Shown here piece by piece: positions 2,499 to 48,228 of a stretch of DNA of 64,000 nt; position 1 is the stretch's first letter; each line of letters starts with the position of its first letter. This DNA comes from Shigella phage vB_SdyM_006. The notes below the pieces were generated by a model that was given only the letters and a program-made list of their open reading frames with translations, did not search any database and had not been told where the DNA came from. Made by a program: the position numbers and the translations under genes. The stretch is taken from the sequence record MK295204, one strand, 5' to 3'.

Positions 2499-4306
2499 TC
2501 TTTTCTAAGCTCTGCATTATCACCAAATAACATTTCAAAAAGTTCTTTATAATTATCAGGCAGCTCAACAACGTCGTATACCGGTTTTTTAAGAACACGT
2601 TCGTATTCTTCAGAAGTTAATGACGCAAGCCCTTTAATATATCTAGGAGAACTCCAACCTTTTAATTTCGGTTTTTCTTTTTCGTATTCTTCAGCATTAT
2701 AATACCATTTTTGTTCTTTACCTTTTTGGATAATAATTAAAGGTGTTTTACAAAAACGGATTCTTTGTTCTTTATACAGTTCTGGCCATTTAGCAAAAAA
2801 TGCTAATAATGAAGGATAAATTGAACCTTGGCCATCGACATCGGCATCCGTCATAATAGCTATATTATCATACATTAAATTTTCAGGTTTTTCGCCAAGA
2901 ACAAGTCCTGTAATAGCCATGATATCAAATGCTTCTTTACTAGCCATAATATCAACATCTTTCATACCCCAAGTATTTAAAAATTTACCACGTAATGGAT
3001 AACCACCTTGTGTATCTTGGTCTCGAGATGTTAATAATTCATTTAAAGCAGAATCACCTTCTGTTAAAAACAGAGTAGTACCAGTTCCAGGTTTTCCATA
3101 TAAGTTAGCTTTAATATGTTTTGCAACTTTAGCCTTAGCAGCTTTTTTTGCTGCTTTTGTAGCCGCAGCCTGTTCAGCAGCAAGTTTACGTGCTAATACT
3201 GCTTCAATAATTGGCATTAAAACCGCTTCATTTCTCATTAACTGAGAAGCTAATTTTTTAACGTCAATATCGACATGGTTTTTAACTTCACCCCATGTAT
3301 TTGATAATCGTTCTTTTGTTTGACTATCAAACTTAAGATTACTCATATCACGAACAAATAAAAGTAGTGTCAAACATTCTTTAATTCGAGCTTTTGTGAT
3401 ATCAATTTTAAACTTACGCTTAATCATAGGCATAAGTTCAGTACATAATTCGTCCATCAACCAATCAACATGAGAGCCACCTTTTTTAGTATGGATATTA
3501 TTAACATAAGAGATATGTCTGAATCCATCAGGTGAGCGTCCAATGGCGACAGAGCAATTAGTTTGGTCTAAGACAATAGATTCTTCATCAAACTGTTTAG
3601 AATACTTCTTGAAGTTCCCTACGACTTTCTTACCATTAAATTTAAATTCAATATCAGGAAATACAACAGCTAGTGTCATTAAACGGTCAAGTGTCACATT
3701 TTTATATACATCAGATAAACTTGTATCATCAAAATGTTCAAAATCTGGAACAAATTTTACTTCTGTTCCGTGATAAGATGCTTTTTTAGTTTTCCATGAA
3801 ATATTTTCTGCACCGTCAGTACAATTAACTGTAATTTCTGTTTCGCCATTACAAGTCACACCAACAAATAATGTAGAGAAAATATTTGTTAACGCAGAAC
3901 CAACACCATTCATCCCACCAGTTTTACGTTCCGAGTCATCGCCAAAATTACCGCCAGCTCGAGGACGTGTCCATGCAGCAACAGGACCTGGGATTTCATC
4001 ACCTTCAGGAGTTAAGACTAAAGCCTGTGGTAATCCGCGACCATTATCTTTAACAGTTACAGTATCATTTTCGATAGAAACTTCAATTTTATTAGCGAAT
4101 TTAAAATTAGTTCTAATAGCTTCATCTACTGAGTTATCAATAATTTCGTCTATAATCTTAACAATACCAGGAACATATTTTATAGTGGTATACTCACCAA
4201 ACAAAAATTGTTCATTATTTTCTGATGATGAAGAACCAATATACATCCCAGAACGTTTAATGATATGTTCACGGTCACTTAAAATTTTAATTTCGTGTTT
4301 ATTCAT
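2483..4306 (-). CDS. 39: DNA topoisomerase II large subunit (gp39 with gp60-equivalent C-terminus fused)
   Basis: 607 aa; MNKHEIKILSDREHIIKRSGMYIGSS, GyrB-like ATPase motifs (DNGRGLP, GGMNGVGS), close to remembered T4 gp39; continuous ORF covering the region split into 39 and 60 in T4. Confidence 0.85.
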   Translation of the reverse strand: MNKHEIKILSDREHIIKRSGMYIGSSSSENNEQFLFGEYTTIKYVPGIVKIIDEIIDNSVDEAIRTNFKFANKIEVSIENDTVTVKDNGRGLPQALVLTPEGDEIPGPVAAWTRPRAGGNFGDDSERKTGGMNGVGSALTNIFSTLFVGVTCNGETEITVNCTDGAENISWKTKKASYHGTEVKFVPDFEHFDDTSLSDVYKNVTLDRLMTLAVVFPDIEFKFNGKKVVGNFKKYSKQFDEESIVLDQTNCSVAIGRSPDGFRHISYVNNIHTKKGGSHVDWLMDELCTELMPMIKRKFKIDITKARIKECLTLLLFVRDMSNLKFDSQTKERLSNTWGEVKNHVDIDVKKLASQLMRNEAVLMPIIEAVLARKLAAEQAAATKAAKKAAKAKVAKHIKANLYGKPGTGTTLFLTEGDSALNELLTSRDQDTQGGYPLRGKFLNTWGMKDVDIMASKEAFDIMAITGLVLGEKPENLMYDNIAIMTDADVDGQGSIYPSLLAFFAKWPELYKEQRIRFCKTPLIIIQKGKEQKWYYNAEEYEKEKPKLKGWSSPRYIKGLASLTSEEYERVLKKPVYDVVELPDNYKELFEMLFGDNAELRKEWMKS

Positions 4307-4320
4307 TATGTCTCCTTGAT

Positions 4321-4659
4321 TTAAGACGGCATCTTATCAAAAATAAAAACATAAGCATTATGTTCTTCTACCGAAAATGGTTTAACAGAAACTTCTAAAT
4401 ATTTTAAGTCTTCTTCATACATATAAGCAGAAAAATCTTTTATATCTCTTAAAGAATGTTCTTGATGTTTAAGAAGATCTCCTATTAATTTAGGATTCTG
4501 GTCCCAAACTTTAACTGGTTTTCTATATACATGAGTGATTCTAAAAGGTCTGTTATCTAACATCCATTGGTATTTGTTGAAAAGCTTCCACTGTTCAGTA
4601 TATTCTGGATTTAATCTATATAAACAATTTTGACTTAGTTCTTTTGCTGGCACCCACAT
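4321..4659 (-). CDS. hypothetical protein (goF position)
   Basis: 112 aa ORF, ATG start; position downstream of gene 39 as goF in T4; no motif recognised. Confidence 0.3.
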   Translation of the reverse strand: MWVPAKELSQNCLYRLNPEYTEQWKLFNKYQWMLDNRPFRITHVYRKPVKVWDQNPKLIGDLLKHQEHSLRDIKDFSAYMYEEDLKYLEVSVKPFSVEEHNAYVFIFDKMPS

Positions 4660-4673
4660 ATTGTCTCCATACT

Positions 4674-4694
4674 AAAAAGGACCCGAAGGTCCTT
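4674..4694 (-). terminator. intrinsic terminator hairpin (GGACC-UUCG-GGUCC plus U-run on minus strand)
   Basis: aaaaaggacccgaaggtcctt; 7-bp stem, tetraloop, A-run on plus = U-run after hairpin on minus; sits between two minus-strand genes. Confidence 0.6.
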
Positions 4695-4707
4695 AATTCA
4701 GATTAGA

Positions 4708-5100
4708 TTAGAAAAATGCTTCTAATAATTTACAAAGAGATTCTGCTTGTTCTTTTGTTTTAACTTCTAGATTCAATTTAATACTTTTACTAGAGACTTC
4801 AGTCACATCATCTTTTGGTTGTATTTCTAAATGAGAAGAATTATCTAAAGAAACACAGTATTTGTCTAAATCAAAATCAGATAGTACATAGGTGGGATAT
4901 TCTTTTGAATCAAAAATATAACCGCCACCCCAATAAAATTTTTCACATGAAATGACTTGGTCATAATCACGAAGAAATGGTTTTTCTATAAGGTCATTAT
5001 CAATTACATACTTTTTAAAATCTTTAGAAGCTTGATGATTTTTATTACTGGTAAAATCTAAAAATGCTGACATGGATTTAAATCTAAAAGTTTTAAACAT
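4708..5100 (-). CDS. hypothetical protein, member of 3-copy tandem paralog family
   Basis: 130 aa; shares FKFKS-like N-terminal motif and LLxxIEK-like C-terminus with the next two ORFs. Confidence 0.45.
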   Translation of the reverse strand: MFKTFRFKSMSAFLDFTSNKNHQASKDFKKYVIDNDLIEKPFLRDYDQVISCEKFYWGGGYIFDSKEYPTYVLSDFDLDKYCVSLDNSSHLEIQPKDDVTEVSSKSIKLNLEVKTKEQAESLCKLLEAFF

Positions 5101-5947: not shown

Positions 5948-6885
5948 AATACGGCCTTTGCCCATTTAGAAGTTTTGGATTTGATTTGTTGATTCAACTC
6001 ATCAATAACAACACACATTAAGTCTTTGTCATTAACCAGTTCATATTCAGGTTTACTACGATAATTCAGCCATAATGTATCGATTAAACAGTTAATAACA
6101 TCAGCTGCTTCACCAGTAGCGCATTCATCAACTTCATCTTGACGAAATGTAGCTTTAGAATATTCGCCAACTTCTTCTACTAAGTGTGCAAATACAATTG
6201 CTAAATCACGTTCAGGTGCTTTAATACACATTTTAACAGTTGGACTAATGTCTAAAATGGGTTCACAATCGAAAGATTCAATTGTCATTTTATCTAGCTC
6301 TTTTTGGTCTGCGTATTGAACAATGCTTAAATGTGTTAATTCAAAAAATTCTTTTTCGCGCTTATTGTATTGTTCTGTTCCAAAATCACCTAAATGGGCA
6401 AATGACCAAAACATTTCACCTTGGTTGTCAAAGTATTCGCCATTTAGACTAATAGATGTAGGATGACCATCTTTATCTGCTTCCAAAATAGTTAAAGTGT
6501 TAATACCTATTTTTGAATATTTTGCATTTAAAATAGGGTATAGCTCCTTTTGTTCACGTGTAATTTGTTGTGGAAGAGCTACAAAAGTATATGTACGTCC
6601 GGCCTGAAGTAATTTACGACGTGTGAATGCTTGTGCTAAACTAGATTTTGATAAAACACACCAAAACTGGTCTTTTTCATAGTCTTCTAATTCAATAATT
6701 TGATTATTGACAAGAATTTTAGACGCGCCTTCAAAGTCAATACCGTTTTGATTTATAGAAACGGTTTCTAAAATTTGAACTTCCATATTATCAAATAGCT
6801 CAATTCCACGTTCTTCTAAAATGTGTGAAAACGAACCAGTTGAAGCAGAAGAAAGATTTAATGTATATAATGCACCGTTATTCAT
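5944..6885 (-). CDS. hypothetical protein with C-terminal MazG-like NTP-pyrophosphohydrolase motif
   Basis: 313 aa; C-terminal segment LAIVFAHLVEEVGEYSKATFRQDEVDECATGEAADVINCLIDTL resembles MazG EExxE/ExxD helices; N-terminal 220 aa unassigned. Confidence 0.4.
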   Translation of the reverse strand: MNNGALYTLNLSSASTGSFSHILEERGIELFDNMEVQILETVSINQNGIDFEGASKILVNNQIIELEDYEKDQFWCVLSKSSLAQAFTRRKLLQAGRTYTFVALPQQITREQKELYPILNAKYSKIGINTLTILEADKDGHPTSISLNGEYFDNQGEMFWSFAHLGDFGTEQYNKREKEFFELTHLSIVQYADQKELDKMTIESFDCEPILDISPTVKMCIKAPERDLAIVFAHLVEEVGEYSKATFRQDEVDECATGEAADVINCLIDTLWLNYRSKPEYELVNDKDLMCVVIDELNQQIKSKTSKWAKAVL

Positions 6886-6889
6886 AATA

Positions 6890-7105
6890 TTATCCTCTTA
6901 AATTTTCAAAAAAGAACTCAGTTTTAGCATCAGTTCCAGTTGAACTGATAACACGTGTATAAACTTCAACGACTTTATTGTTTTCAAACACATAAAGATT
7001 TGTTAAATGAATCATATGAGAAACACAAGATTCTTTTTGGGTCACAGACATTGTATTTGAATATAAAACATCTTCAAATTGGTCACGACTAATTTCGATT
7101 TTCAT
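6890..7105 (-). CDS. hypothetical protein
   Basis: 71 aa ORF, ATG start. Confidence 0.3.
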   Translation of the reverse strand: MKIEISRDQFEDVLYSNTMSVTQKESCVSHMIHLTNLYVFENNKVVEVYTRVISSTGTDAKTEFFFENLRG

Positions 7106-41084: not shown

Positions 41085-42956
41085 TTAGTCTAATTTATCA
41101 TTTAATATTGGTTTAGCAATATGTTTTGTTCTATGGATAACTTCTTTTTGTTTACCTTCGTTAAACCCACGAGAAGCAGGATTTCCAAGATATCCACAGG
41201 TACGACGGACAACAGACATTTTCTTTACATCCATTTCACCACATTTTGGACATTTAAACCCATTTTCTGTAGGAATAAATTCTCCATGGAATTCACATGT
41301 AAAGCATTGGTCAACAGGAGTATTTGTTCCAAAATAATCTAGATTTTCTACAGCATAATCCCAGACCTGTTCTAATGCATCAAGATTATCCTTCATATTA
41401 GGGAGCTCAACATAAGAAATATGACCACCAGATGCAATACGGTGATAATCCTTTTCAAATTCAATTTTCTCAAATGGATTAACTTTACGTTCAACATCAA
41501 GATGGAAACTATTTGTGTACCAACCTTTATCTGTAATTCCTTTAACAGAACCAAATTCTGCTTTATCTAATTTGCAGAATCTGTGACATAAACTTTCTGC
41601 GGGAGTAGAATAAAGACTAAATGCATATCCAGTTTCTTCTTTCCATTTAGAAAGATAATAATTTATTTCTTTAAGAATATGTTTACCAAATTCTTGGGCT
41701 TCTTTATTATCAAATGGTTCATCATTAAAAATCAGTTTTAATGTTTCGTGTAAACCAATATATCCTAGCGAAATAGAACTTCGTCCATTTTTAAATAATG
41801 ATAATATTTCGTCATTAGGGTTCATACGAACACCAAAAGCGCCACCACAATATAAAATTGGAGCTACAGAAGCTTTTGCACCACGTAAAGAATCAATTCT
41901 AGTCATAAGAGCAGTATAACAGAGGCCAAGACGATCTCTCAATGATTGGATATATGATTCTTTAGATAAATTGTCACTACCTAATTCCAGGGCTATTCTA
42001 GGAAGATTTAATGTGACTACACCTAGATTATTGCGTCCATCTAAAATTTCTTTGCCATTTTCTTTATAGACACTTAAAAAAGATCTACACCCCATAGGAG
42101 AAACTGGGACCGAACTACCGGTTATTTCTTTATTAATTTTAGACGAAATAATATCTGGGTACATTCTTTTAGCTGAACATTCTAATGCTAATTTTTTAAT
42201 AAAATAATTAGGGTCTTCAGGTTTAAGATTAATTCCTTCTTCAATAAAGAAGACTAATTTAGGAAATATCGCAGTTACTTCATCTTTGCCTAAGCCTTTA
42301 ATTCTATTTTTAAGAATAGCTTCTTGGATAACTGTGCCGGCCCATGAAGTAGAAGTTCCAAAAGAAATAGTCACAAATGGCGTTTGTCCATTAGAGCTAA
42401 AAAGCGTATTTATTTCATATTCATACGCTTGGAAAGCGTCATAAACATCTTTTTCTGTCTTCTTCATAGCATAATCTTCCCAATCAGGAATACGCCATTC
42501 AAAAGCTTCATTAAGATGTTTTTGGTATGTAGCTTCTACGTAAGGCTCAAGAACAACATCAACATTTGCAAATGTTGTTCCACCATATTGATGAGAAGCA
42601 ACTTGGGCTGTGACTTGGGCCATAATTGCACAAGCTACACCAATTGATTTAGGTGTTTCTATTTCCGCGTTACCAAGCTTAAATCCATTTTCAAACATGC
42701 CTTTTAAATCAACTAAACAACAATTTGTAAAAGGCAGTGATACACTATAATCTAAGTCATGATAATGAATAATACCTTTGTCGTGTGCTTCTACGACATT
42801 AGAAGGCAATCTACTACGAGCCACGTACTTGGAAGCAATTCCGGCCAGTAAGTCACGTTGAGTAGGAAAGACACCATAGGGCTTGTTTGCATTTTCTGTA
42901 GAAAGTTCATTTGATTCACGATTACATACCTCATTAATTTGAGAAATTAAGTTCAT
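41085..42956 (-). CDS. nrdD: anaerobic ribonucleoside-triphosphate reductase NrdD (glycyl radical enzyme)
   Basis: 623 aa; C-terminal zinc ribbon CFTCEF...CPKCG and glycyl radical motif RRTCGYLG; continuous ORF (no intron). Confidence 0.85.
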   Translation of the reverse strand: MNLISQINEVCNRESNELSTENANKPYGVFPTQRDLLAGIASKYVARSRLPSNVVEAHDKGIIHYHDLDYSVSLPFTNCCLVDLKGMFENGFKLGNAEIETPKSIGVACAIMAQVTAQVASHQYGGTTFANVDVVLEPYVEATYQKHLNEAFEWRIPDWEDYAMKKTEKDVYDAFQAYEYEINTLFSSNGQTPFVTISFGTSTSWAGTVIQEAILKNRIKGLGKDEVTAIFPKLVFFIEEGINLKPEDPNYFIKKLALECSAKRMYPDIISSKINKEITGSSVPVSPMGCRSFLSVYKENGKEILDGRNNLGVVTLNLPRIALELGSDNLSKESYIQSLRDRLGLCYTALMTRIDSLRGAKASVAPILYCGGAFGVRMNPNDEILSLFKNGRSSISLGYIGLHETLKLIFNDEPFDNKEAQEFGKHILKEINYYLSKWKEETGYAFSLYSTPAESLCHRFCKLDKAEFGSVKGITDKGWYTNSFHLDVERKVNPFEKIEFEKDYHRIASGGHISYVELPNMKDNLDALEQVWDYAVENLDYFGTNTPVDQCFTCEFHGEFIPTENGFKCPKCGEMDVKKMSVVRRTCGYLGNPASRGFNEGKQKEVIHRTKHIAKPILNDKLD

Positions 42957-43423
42957 TTTAAAGATTTCCTTAAAGCTTTTTTGTATCTTTTAGTTAACTC
43001 GGTTTTTGTATCTGTTTCTAGATATTCAAATCCGTGTAATACCATTTCTTCTATCATTTCTTCTTTAGACAACCGAGAAAACTCTTTAGATTTGTCTATT
43101 ATATACTGTGGATGGATAGGATTTTCACTGCTGTCTTTTTTTAAGTAAAATAAAAGGTTCTCCATCCAATTAATATATTCTACTTTAGATTTTAGTCCTG
43201 AACGATTAAATTTATGCTTCAACTGTCCTTCTGCTGCATTACATAAAGGGCATAATAATCCACGAACTCTTCCAGCTTCAGGACCAGATAACGCATGGTC
43301 ATGGTCCAAATGATTTTTTTGAACATCTTTATCTAATTCTAAACGACAAATACAACAAAGGCCCTTTTGGGCCTTATATAATTTTTCTTTTTCTTGTTTA
43401 AATGATTTTCCGGATAATAACAT
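42953..43423 (-). CDS. 49: recombination endonuclease VII gp49
   Basis: 156 aa; GLCCICRLELD...NHLDHDHALSGPEAGRVRGLLCPLCNAAEGQLKHKFNRSGLK closely matches remembered T4 endo VII. Confidence 0.85.
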   Translation of the reverse strand: MLLSGKSFKQEKEKLYKAQKGLCCICRLELDKDVQKNHLDHDHALSGPEAGRVRGLLCPLCNAAEGQLKHKFNRSGLKSKVEYINWMENLLFYLKKDSSENPIHPQYIIDKSKEFSRLSKEEMIEEMVLHGFEYLETDTKTELTKRYKKALRKSLK

Positions 43424-43462: not shown

Positions 43463-43717
43463 TCACCAAACCAAATATTGTGGAGTCAGCTTTTTAGTAT
43501 ACTTAATAAGATTTCTTATTTGTTTTCTTGTAGGTTTAACATCAAAAACATTTAAAGCCACACGTTCATGTGGATATTCACCCACTTTAACTTTTAATGT
43601 CCATCCTAAAACTATATGTGGAGCCATTTTACAATAAGAAATTTGTACCTTTACCGGATTTTTAGCATCATTACTTGAATACTGTATAATTGATGGTGTA
43701 TTAATTTCATAGCTCAT
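43463..43717 (-). CDS. hypothetical protein
   Basis: 84 aa, ATG start. Confidence 0.3.
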   Translation of the reverse strand: MSYEINTPSIIQYSSNDAKNPVKVQISYCKMAPHIVLGWTLKVKVGEYPHERVALNVFDVKPTRKQIRNLIKYTKKLTPQYLVW

Positions 43718-43720
43718 AGC

Positions 43721-43876
43721 TCATAGTTCACCTGTCTCATACCATTTTTGTTCTTGCTCATCTGTATCAAAGAAACCTTCAAGTCCAGTAGGAAGAGCAC
43801 CCGAAATTCTACTTAGAAGGCTATATAATTTTTCGTTTTGGTCTTCTAAATAAGCAATACGATCTTTATCGTTCAT
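43721..43876 (-). CDS. hypothetical small protein
   Basis: Track ORF extends to 43924 overlapping nrdC; ATG at 43876 follows nrdC stop with AAGGA Shine-Dalgarno. Confidence 0.25.
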   Translation of the reverse strand: MNDKDRIAYLEDQNEKLYSLLSRISGALPTGLEGFFDTDEQEQKWYETGEL

Positions 43877-44138
43877 TAATATATTCCTTAAATTTATCAA
43901 ATCCACCAATAGATTTATCATCAATAAAAATCTGTGGCATTGTTAATCCAACTTCTGAGCGTCGGTTTAAACGTTGTACTAATTCATCAATAACTTGTTT
44001 ATTAAGAACAGGTCCTTCAGATTCTGAAACAGGAATAAAAGTATATTCGAGTTTTTTAACATCTGCTAATCGTTTAGCGTTAATACATGGAACACATTTA
44101 AAGTGTTTAGGGTCAAATCCGTAAATTTCTATTTTCAT
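43866..44138 (-). CDS. nrdC: glutaredoxin NrdC
   Basis: 90 aa; MKIEIYGFDPKHFKCVPCINAKRL...GLTMPQIFIDDKSIGGFDKFKEY matches remembered T4 NrdC. Confidence 0.75.
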   Translation of the reverse strand: MKIEIYGFDPKHFKCVPCINAKRLADVKKLEYTFIPVSESEGPVLNKQVIDELVQRLNRRSEVGLTMPQIFIDDKSIGGFDKFKEYINER

Positions 44139-44652: not shown

Positions 44653-44832
44653 TTAAAAAGTCATTTTGCAATGTCGACATTTATATTTTAAGTCTTTATA
44701 TTGCCATGATACTAATTGCACCTGGTTTGTCCCACACCCCGGACAGTGCGGAATATTTTTAGAAGCATCTTCACGACGCTTCACCATTTCTTCTACTTTT
44801 TCCCAATTAATAATATCTTTATGAAGAACCAT
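44653..44832 (-). CDS. small zinc-ribbon protein (not in ORF track, 59 aa)
   Basis: Hand-translated: MVLHKDIINWEKVEEMVKRREDASKNIPHCPGCGTNQVQLVSWQYKDLKYKCRHCKMTF; CPGCG...CRHC four-Cys ribbon; fills gap between flanking genes. Confidence 0.35.
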   Translation of the reverse strand: MVLHKDIINWEKVEEMVKRREDASKNIPHCPGCGTNQVQLVSWQYKDLKYKCRHCKMTF

Positions 44833-44834
44833 TA

Positions 44835-45830
44835 TTATTCCTTAAAATTGTAGTAGCTTTTTACTTCTTGTAAATAAACATCATGGATAAACTTATTCCA
44901 AAATTCTGTATCAACCTGTTTAGGCATACCATTTTTAGCAGCAATTATTGCTTTCTTTTCAACATCATCTACAATTGCTTCTAAATTCTGTTGAACGAGT
45001 TTAAAATCGATTTTACCTTGTTTGATATCTAATATTTGTCCTGACATTTTTAATGGCATAACTAAATCGCCAGTATCATAGATTTCGGCTAATTGTACAC
45101 CTGCTCTATATGCATGGCTTAAAGCTTTCCAATCAATACCTTCATTAGCTTCTGCTTTACGAGCTCGTTCGCCATAATTTTGTTCTAGTTTAACAAGAAC
45201 TTTGTTGAATTCAGCATTAGTGAGTGTATCTTGGAATTTTCGGTCTAATAGGCTATAAAATGTTTGTTTACCCGTTTTTTCATTTTCTGTGCTTGTCCAG
45301 AATGCAACACTTGATTTAGGAAGAGCACCTTTCATATGTTCTAAACGAATTGGTGCTCCATTATCAAACACAGGACCCCAGTCATTTGAAACTTTTAACG
45401 CAGCTCTTAACGCAGCTAATCTTGAACCTTTTACACCGTATTTCGATGCCTGTTTACGAACATATCCTAAATAGGCCTTCATATTAGTTGTATAAAATCT
45501 CGAACGATTATCTCTAATAAACCGCCATACTTCTGGTAAATCAGAATGAATGACCATTTGGTCTGGTGCATGGATTAAATCAAGCGCTACGGTTTCACCA
45601 GATGCCGCTAGGTTTAAAAAGTATTTTAACGAATATAATTCATGATCAACATCATCTGAAGTGTTCTTAGATGACCCAGGATTGGTATTCATGTTAAAAT
45701 GCTCTTTAACACGACATGAAATAATACTTTTGGCATCTGGAATATAAATTTCTTTATAATCTAAATCCGATTCTGGAGTACTAGTTCCATATAAATGAGA
45801 ACCAAATAAAATTTTTGCTACAGATTTCAT
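44835..45830 (-). CDS. hypothetical protein with Pol-beta-type nucleotidyltransferase-like N-terminal motif
   Basis: 331 aa; FGSHLYGTSTPESDLDYK resembles G[SG]x(9-13)DxD NTase signature. Confidence 0.35.
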   Translation of the reverse strand: MKSVAKILFGSHLYGTSTPESDLDYKEIYIPDAKSIISCRVKEHFNMNTNPGSSKNTSDDVDHELYSLKYFLNLAASGETVALDLIHAPDQMVIHSDLPEVWRFIRDNRSRFYTTNMKAYLGYVRKQASKYGVKGSRLAALRAALKVSNDWGPVFDNGAPIRLEHMKGALPKSSVAFWTSTENEKTGKQTFYSLLDRKFQDTLTNAEFNKVLVKLEQNYGERARKAEANEGIDWKALSHAYRAGVQLAEIYDTGDLVMPLKMSGQILDIKQGKIDFKLVQQNLEAIVDDVEKKAIIAAKNGMPKQVDTEFWNKFIHDVYLQEVKSYYNFKE

Positions 45831-45832
45831 TA

Positions 45833-46306
45833 TTATTCCTGTTCTTGTAAAGAATTAATAGTATCATTATAAATTCGTTTAGCTTTTTCTTTGTCCGAAA
45901 CGTATCCAAAAAGATAATCTAAAGCTTCTTTCGAAATATCTTGATACTTCACTTTCCACTCTTTGTAGTATTCGGTCAATTGCTGGTCTTTTTTAAACAA
46001 TTCATCTAATAAAGGAATGACTTTTTTATAATGGAAAATACAGGTTCCAATAACTTCCGAAATGTATTCATCTTTAACAGGAGTGCCAGACGTAATTAAA
46101 TTATCTGTGATTTGTAAATTAAAGAACGCTGTTTTGCAATCTGATAACACTGGATTGTTAAAAGCATACAAGTCTTCACATAATTCAGTTATTCGTTTTT
46201 CTGCTTTCTTTTGTTTTGCTGACGGGTTAACAAGCCCACCGAATAATTGGATTGGAGGATATTTTGCAATATTAGAAATAAAAGTTCTTTGTAATTGTAA
46301 AGACAT
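45833..46306 (-). CDS. hypothetical protein
   Basis: 157 aa, ATG start. Confidence 0.3.
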   Translation of the reverse strand: MSLQLQRTFISNIAKYPPIQLFGGLVNPSAKQKKAEKRITELCEDLYAFNNPVLSDCKTAFFNLQITDNLITSGTPVKDEYISEVIGTCIFHYKKVIPLLDELFKKDQQLTEYYKEWKVKYQDISKEALDYLFGYVSDKEKAKRIYNDTINSLQEQE

Positions 46307-47505: not shown

Positions 47506-48228
47506 TTATTTAAATTCGATAAAGTTACAATGTTTGCCTTTAAAAGATTCATGGATTTCTTCAGTTAAAGATTTCTCACGTAATTCAATATCTTTTTTGA
47601 TATTAGTATGTTCTAAACGAGCTTTAAGTTTTCTTTGTGCAATCTTTTTAGGGATATAATCACAGAATAGCCAAACACCGCCAACAATAATGACAAACAC
47701 AAGACAACATACAACTGCAAATAGAATAGCACCTAGAATATAAGCACCGATTGTTAATCCAGTTCCAAGAGTAATACCATAATAAGTAAGAATATTAATT
47801 AATGCTGTTCCACCTAAAGAACCAAAAGCACCACATAAAGCAGCAATAAGGAATGTAAAGAACAAACTTCGACCTAATAAATTCCAGAAATACCCACAGA
47901 TGCTTTTTGGCATACTAGCTTTAGGTGTAATTAATTTAGTTAATTTATAGTGCCAAGTATCTTTTTTAATTTCAATTTTCGGTGCAACAGAAGATAATCT
48001 GATGTCAACAATATCATTACCCCAGATATGATACTCATTATCAATAACTTTAAAATCTGTATTAACAATATAGCCATTTGAAAATACAAAGATATCGTGT
48101 TTATTAGATTTAGCGAGTTCAATTAAATTATTTGCAATTATAGATGCTTCTTCTTTAGTGGCCCATTCAGAATTAATACGGTGCCATTTAGGAGTTTCGG
48201 TATTAATTAAAAGTTCAATAGTATACAT
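47506..48228 (-). CDS. hypothetical membrane protein
   Basis: 240 aa; central Gly/Ala-rich transmembrane block (FFTFLIAALCGAFGSLGG...VFVIIVGGVWL). Confidence 0.35.
   Translation of the reverse strand: MYTIELLINTETPKWHRINSEWATKEEASIIANNLIELAKSNKHDIFVFSNGYIVNTDFKVIDNEYHIWGNDIVDIRLSSVAPKIEIKKDTWHYKLTKLITPKASMPKSICGYFWNLLGRSLFFTFLIAALCGAFGSLGGTALINILTYYGITLGTGLTIGAYILGAILFAVVCCLVFVIIVGGVWLFCDYIPKKIAQRKLKARLEHTNIKKDIELREKSLTEEIHESFKGKHCNFIEFK

Follow-up and report, generated by a model that had tools for sequence, protein, structure and literature searches.

According to later papers, Pfam family PF10127 ('RNA repair pathway DNA polymerase beta family') was reportedly named RlaP by Burroughs and Aravind in 2016, for its linkage to RNA ligases. 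The gene analysed here almost certainly encodes a member of this family; it lies in a 64,000-nucleotide stretch of DNA from Shigella phage vB_SdyM_006 (sequence record MK295204), called the window below, and it corresponds to nrdC.11 of phage T4. RlaP has been predicted to restore, before ligation, nucleotides lost to RloC-type nucleases (Iyer et al., 2021; PMC7824862). Two short RlaPs from Pseudomonas, PfRlaP and PaRlaP, have been studied experimentally (Carruthers, Fatma & Huang, bioRxiv December 2025; PMC12776372): they add one or two nucleoside monophosphates (NMPs, or the corresponding dNMPs) to an RNA 3′-OH, with neither DNA nor protein as substrate, prefer Mn2+, favour the 5′ half of a nicked-tRNA mimic, and partly rescue the aminoacylation of a tRNA without one anticodon-loop nucleotide. 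The crystal structure of PfRlaP comprises a nucleotidyltransferase (NTase) domain and a helical domain, and the PF10127 sequence similarity network places these short RlaPs in cluster 1a and T4 NrdC.11 in cluster 5 (PMC12776372). The NTase assignment dates from 2006, and the literature that we found on nrdC.11 function consists of comparative-genomics mentions and the RlaP preprint. The identification of the gene as an NTase gene is correct and, since it is recognised as an ortholog of T4 nrdC.11 and short members of its named family have lately been characterised, already known; our analysis adds to it modestly, in the two respects set out below.

In the open reading frame (ORF) list of the window, the gene is a single ORF at 44835..45830 on the minus strand, with an ATG start, that encodes 331 amino acids (aa) with the N-terminus MKSVAKILFGSHLYGTSTPESDLDYKEIYIP. 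The N-terminus of the 331-aa protein, as read in the ORF translation, is MKSVAKILFGSHLYGTSTPESDLDYK; it contains the motif FGSHLYGTSTPESDLDYK, with G10-S11, then ten residues, then D22-L-D24. The original prediction had claimed this ORF and quoted this motif, both of which are present in the list, and had read them as a Pol-beta-type NTase-like protein in the nrdC region. That location is right, with a glutaredoxin-type NrdC gene and nrdD just downstream (Table 1), and the NTase reading is supported by a match to PF10127 at 49.9 bits (gathering score 23; E = 4.5e-13), by an end-to-end match to PHROG 388 'nucleotidyltransferase' (E = 6e-113) and by the invariance of G10, S11, D22 and D24. A phmmer search of 1.84 billion cluster representatives found 3,274 clusters at E <= 1e-3 and 723 at E <= 1e-30, and the best 150 matches listed are nearly all full-length proteins of 300–370 aa. 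We aligned the protein with 146 sequences from these best matches (147 sequences in all; 33–51% identity to the query), every one of which (147/147) also matches PF10127. In this alignment G10, S11, S21, D22, D24, Y131 and R242 are invariant, and conservation reaches 85% or more at about 48 positions, including D60, D62, D84, K130, R137, Y219, G220, R222, D233, W234, K235, H239, P259 and K270. Judged by these family matches and by its conservation, the NTase motif is far beyond chance. The head domain of CCA-adding enzymes and poly(A) polymerases (Pfam PolyA_pol, PF01743) gave no match to the protein at E <= 1.

Searching phage records with tblastn, we found the protein to be 100% identical to phiP43_198 of Proteus phage phiP4-3 (MG696114.1; Bragavirus, Straboviridae), and the DNA of the window is 99.1% identical to phiP4-3 over 10 kb. 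T4 NrdC.11, encoded between mobD and nrdC.10, shares 60% identity with it over 99% of its length. In total 1,559 phage records gave matches, 1,444 of them covering at least 80% of the query, and these are overwhelmingly from T4-like phages of enterobacteria, Aeromonas, Acinetobacter and Vibrio. From its sequence, the gene is thus assigned as the phiP4-3-type ortholog of T4 nrdC.11, encoding a long-form RlaP that is predicted to be catalytically intact. The product name 'thioredoxin' that GenBank record MG696114.1 gives to phiP43_198 apparently goes back to the gene name nrdC.11, and many records of T4-like phages repeat the error; in RefSeq (NC_055737.1) the GenBank label has been corrected to 'nucleotidyltransferase'.

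AlphaFold2, run on the 147-sequence alignment, gave a confident model with a mean predicted local distance difference test score (pLDDT) of 94.4 and a predicted template modelling score (pTM) of 0.86, in which about residues 1–115 form the alpha/beta NTase core that the original prediction expected. Its further statement that the rest of the protein is unassigned holds for Pfam, whose match is limited to residues 8–134 (profile positions 25–142 of 249), and no longer holds after profile and structure analysis: the C-terminal two thirds consist of the RlaP helical domain and a conserved insertion that divides it; this finding is the first modest addition of this work. The basic segment that follows the core is a candidate surface for binding nucleoside triphosphate (NTP) or RNA. 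The insertion consists of a helix, a poorly conserved three-stranded beta sheet (176–200) and a helix (205–227) with the conserved motif Y219-G220-x-R222, and in the model five further helices follow the sheet and reach residue 326. We compared the family with a profile of 14 short canonical RlaPs (255–290 aa) from the bacterial loci described below. With the intact protein, hhalign aligned residues 8–99 only (probability 92.9%), with D62 on the invariant third Asp of the short form; with residues 136–230 deleted, it aligned 168 columns from the NTase core through the helical domain (probability 96.3%, E = 1.7e-9). Because this deletion restores the alignment to short RlaP, we describe the NrdC.11 clade as RlaPs whose helical domain carries about 95 inserted residues, and it is because the insertion interrupts this domain that the Pfam match is limited to the N-terminal half. 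Foldseek of the model against the Protein Data Bank (PDB) returned no match at E < 1e-3, the global template modelling (TM) scores being kept low by the insertion and by a different arrangement of the two domains.

Relatives outside phages were sought in one genome per species from 100,044 bacterial and archaeal species. This yielded 78 loci with relatives, in Desulfobacterales, Nitrospirae, Rhizobiales, Chlamydiae, Dependentiae, Candidate Phyla Radiation (CPR) bacteria and some archaea; 73 of the loci entered the analysis as full-length orthologs. Neighbouring ORFs were called and clustered and the clusters identified with Pfam, with enough flanking sequence for this at 65 loci. The commonest neighbour of the long form is a short canonical RlaP directly downstream (16/65 loci), often so close that its start codon overlaps the stop codon of the long one, with the catalytic residues intact in both copies. 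At six of the 16 tandem loci there is, in addition, RtcB, Pnkp/Hen1 or an Rnl-type ligase; RtcB, Pnkp, Hen1 and PF09414 RNA ligase were each found at four loci, and at least one of them lies within 6 kb at 11/73 loci. These RNA-repair neighbours provide independent gene-association evidence that the long clade acts in RNA repair, and the tandem long/short RlaP pairs in bacterial RNA-repair operons are the second modest addition of this analysis. We also tested T4 NrdC.10 (locus L001, 6126–7094) as a diverged second RlaP, since such a pair would mirror the bacterial tandem, and rejected it, as it gave only weak matches to AAA/STAND NTPases (AAA_14, E = 6e-5; nSTAND3, E = 5e-4). In the jumbo Vibrio phage vB_VmeM-Yong XC31 (locus L083), a gene with the annotation CCA tRNA nucleotidyltransferase (2608–3888) is followed, 2 nt downstream, by an NrdC.11-like gene (3890–4924), an adjacency that hints at a link to tRNA-end repair.

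By analogy with the short RlaPs, the long phage form probably shares their activity and has cleaved tRNA as its substrate in vivo. D22, D24 and D62 would hold two divalent metal ions and the NTP (Mn2+ being preferred in the characterised short RlaPs), and a basic cleft between the NTase and helical domains would bind the broken RNA. One or two untemplated NMPs would then be transferred to the damaged RNA 3′-OH, an activity shown for short RlaPs only. During infection this would replace nucleotides excised from host tRNA by RloC-type ('smart') anticodon nucleases, after which the phage Pnkp and RNA ligase 1, whose genes lie in another part of the genome, would reseal a full-length anticodon loop; the phiP4-3 genome does encode RNA ligase 1 and Pnkp. 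We regard this complete sequence of events, with a long RlaP restoring the nucleotides of host-cleaved tRNA ahead of Pnkp/Rnl1 resealing, as rather probable. T4 mutants with reduced genomes that lack nrdC.11–mobD.3 are viable (PMC9825161), as expected for an accessory counter-defence gene.

Several points weigh against the tRNA-repair reading. The rnlA and pseT genes lie about 90 kb from the NTase gene in the phage, outside the window, and are not adjacent to it, and RNA ligase or another RNA-repair gene (including Hen1) is near just 11 of the 73 bacterial loci. An addition without a template would in most cases put in a wrong nucleotide, as the preprint itself concedes (PMC12776372). The characterised short RlaPs belong to cluster 1a and not to cluster 5, are alike to the phage protein at the Pfam level in the N-terminal core alone, and are without the insertion. 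Lastly, since long and short forms stand side by side in bacteria with both catalytically intact, they are probably not redundant, and the long form may act differently.

This last point leads to the main alternative, that the role of the long form is distinct from that of the short one, in that it would act at another RNA end (for example the tRNA 3′ CCA), add a specific nucleotide or, in bacteria, be a subunit of a long/short heterodimer, and the short-RlaP results would then not transfer directly. The tandem arrangement with both active sites kept speaks for this alternative, and the Y219-G220-x-R222 motif of the insertion is not present in short RlaP. To these can be added the gene for a CCA-adding enzyme beside the Yong XC31 ortholog, and the distribution in phages, with T4-like phages carrying the long form only and short RlaPs among phages confined to jumbo phages. 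The CCA adjacency is, however, a single case, and both forms have the catalytic core and K-x3-[HY]-A-x-R in common and occur in the same RNA-repair operons, so that we consider a distinct role unlikely, though well worth keeping in mind. If the NrdC.11-type long RlaP were functionally distinct, which to us is similarly doubtful, its YGxR insertion might set the specificity for RNA end or nucleotide, or its pairing with the short form; and, jointly with this and on the same tentative footing, T4-like phages might have kept the specialised long form alone to counter a particular host ribotoxin.

Other chemistries fare less well. HalB of the Hailong system is an oligodeoxyadenylate synthase whose partner is the HalA channel (PMC13276650). 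The products of a HalB-like synthase in the phage would be short oligo(deoxy)nucleotides, which might, for example as decoys or signals, interfere with a host defence such as Hailong. The likeness to HalB (PDB 9dbh/9dbj) is at the level of the fold only, with 15% identity. No solved relative turned up when a PDB copy that apparently does not include the PfRlaP crystal structure was searched with the protein sequence and the family profile, and the profile matched no PDB sequence, HalB included, even at E <= 10. PADLOC models for CD-NTases and other anti-phage defence NTases gave zero families at E <= 1, and we found here no HalA-type partner or context, the bacterial gene context being RNA repair and not HalA-type channels. 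Moreover, the characterised RlaPs stop after 1–2 additions and do not extend DNA (PMC12776372), and we judge a HalB-like function very improbable. Much the same applies to nucleotidylyl transfer onto a protein or small molecule, whether by an antitoxin of the MNT/MntA type, with a HEPN toxin as the target of AMPylation, or by an enzyme of the kanamycin nucleotidyltransferase (KNTase)/Lnu type. The one NCBIfam match, to the MntA model (NF047752) over the GS...DxD motif, reaches 14.5 bits against a cut-off of 60, and PF01909 is below threshold (E = 0.15); no HEPN toxin gene is among the neighbours scanned, and PfRlaP did not label E. coli proteins (PMC12776372). KNTase/ANT(4′) and the 3c18-type NTase-like proteins, which are small-molecule modifiers or uncharacterised, have no family-level sequence match to the protein and reach global TM-scores of 0.25–0.31 with the model, and this reading too is very unlikely. 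That the gene is an inactive or vestigial NTase-like gene without function in the phage would agree with its place in a variable accessory region and with the tolerance of T4 to nrdC.11 deletion (PMC9825161), but the catalytic residues are invariant, many other positions are highly conserved, and full-length orthologs are widespread (1,444 phage records; over 700 protein clusters at E <= 1e-30), all of which makes loss of function scarcely credible.

Around the NTase gene the coding sequence is dense. The gaps that flank it are 2 nt each, from the stop of the upstream ORF to its ATG and from its own stop to the start of the next ORF, and the gene is therefore part of a tightly packed row on the minus strand. 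A scan for promoters and terminators around it gave a promoter-like count not above that of shuffled sequence, and no tRNA genes were found in the 64-kb window. Further along the minus strand, 47506–48228 encodes a 240-aa predicted membrane protein that matches PHROG 944, with weak, sub-threshold Pfam matches to Saf_2TM (SAVED-fused 2TM effector) and PspB. Relative to phiP4-3, the window has a 7-bp indel at 43707–43714 and, crowded into 43745–43838, about 27 mismatches; these differences fall inside small ORFs between the endonuclease VII gene and nrdC and would fit local recombination or a hypervariable site.

Table 1. Coordinates of the NTase gene, its predicted protein features and its neighbours in the window, and of selected bacterial loci (last four rows, in the numbering of each locus).
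Feature	Position	Strand	Remarks
CDS, NrdC.11 ortholog, predicted long-form RlaP (PF10127) nucleotidyltransferase	44835..45830	minus	Includes stop codon; 331 aa, 37.7 kDa, pI 8.3
N-terminal Pol-beta-type NTase core, residues 1–115	45486..45830	minus	Strands 2–9, 23–30, 44–48 and 61–67, plus helices
G10-S11, hG[GS] motif of NTase fold	45798..45803	minus	Invariant, n = 147
D22-L-D24, DxD, two metal-binding carboxylates (predicted)	45759..45767	minus	Invariant, n = 147; aligns with invariant DxD of short RlaP
D62, third catalytic carboxylate (predicted), in strand 61–67	45645..45647	minus	96% conserved; aligns with invariant Asp of short RlaP
Basic helical segment, residues 116–152	45375..45485	minus	8 K/R against 1 D/E; conserved G-Y123-x3-Q127-x2-K130-Y131-G-x-K-G135-x-R137
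Clade-specific insertion in RlaP helical domain, ~95 residues (~136–230)	45141..45425	minus	From hhalign and predicted secondary structure
C-terminal helical bundle, residues 231–331, KNTase_C/HEPN-like type	44838..45140	minus	Helices 234–253, 263–270, 276–299 and 308–326
K235-x3-H239-A-x-R242 motif	45105..45128	minus	Corresponds to invariant K-x3-Y-A-x-R of short RlaP
AGGA Shine-Dalgarno	45837..45840	minus	6 nt upstream of NTase ATG; read from sequence
Stop codon of ORF upstream of NTase gene	45833-45835		Between AGGA Shine-Dalgarno and NTase ATG
59-aa zinc-ribbon protein (CPGC...CRHC)	44653-44832	minus	2 nt downstream of NTase gene; PHROG 1474, function unknown
NrdC-type glutaredoxin gene	43866-44138		Just downstream of NTase gene; Pfam Glutaredoxin, E = 7e-8
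Endonuclease VII gene	42953-43423		Just downstream of NTase gene
nrdD	41085-42956		Just downstream of NTase gene
Tandem long/short RlaP loci L009, L012, L017, L022, L025, L029, L030, L049, L050, L056-L058, L060, L062, L069, L080	long ~6001-6970, short at +1		
L022 (Nitrosospira) operon			RtcB-RtcA-long-short-Hen1
L025 (Asticcacaulis) operon			Hen1-Pnkp-long-short
L080 (Chlamydiales) operon			Hen1-Pnkp-long-short-Rnl

If the tRNA-repair reading is true, T4-like phages carry a third RNA-repair enzyme beside Pnkp and Rnl1, and could repair tRNAs from which host anticodon nucleases like RloC have removed a nucleotide, damage so far considered hard to repair. This hypothesis has already been published and is directly testable by T4 genetics. 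The practical value of the present analysis is that it corrects the 'thioredoxin' annotation and places the phage enzyme in a distinct long subfamily, with the insertion and the tandem pairs as cautions against transferring the biochemistry of the short form straight to it.

Compared with the described systems, the phage protein has the plan of the short RlaPs PfRlaP and PaRlaP, namely an NTase core with GS, DxD and a third Asp followed by a C-terminal helical domain. Short and long forms also share K-x3-[YH]-A-x-R, and bacterial members of both occur in RtcB and Pnkp/Hen1 operons. The long protein differs in being about 60 residues longer and in its insertion (helix, beta sheet, helix), which has conserved motifs of its own. 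The surroundings of T4 nrdC.11 are different, with mobD upstream and the AAA-like nrdC.10 downstream, whereas here the 157-aa PHROG 3576 protein is encoded upstream and the 59-aa zinc-ribbon protein downstream; no nrdC.10 homolog was seen at the equivalent position beside the NTase gene in the window. T4 NrdC.11 itself (38.9 kDa) is closely similar: it has a comparable partial match to PF10127 (E = 2.1e-11, residues 7–134), and its gene, like the one described here, lies in the early-gene region close to nrdC and shares the strand of its neighbours.
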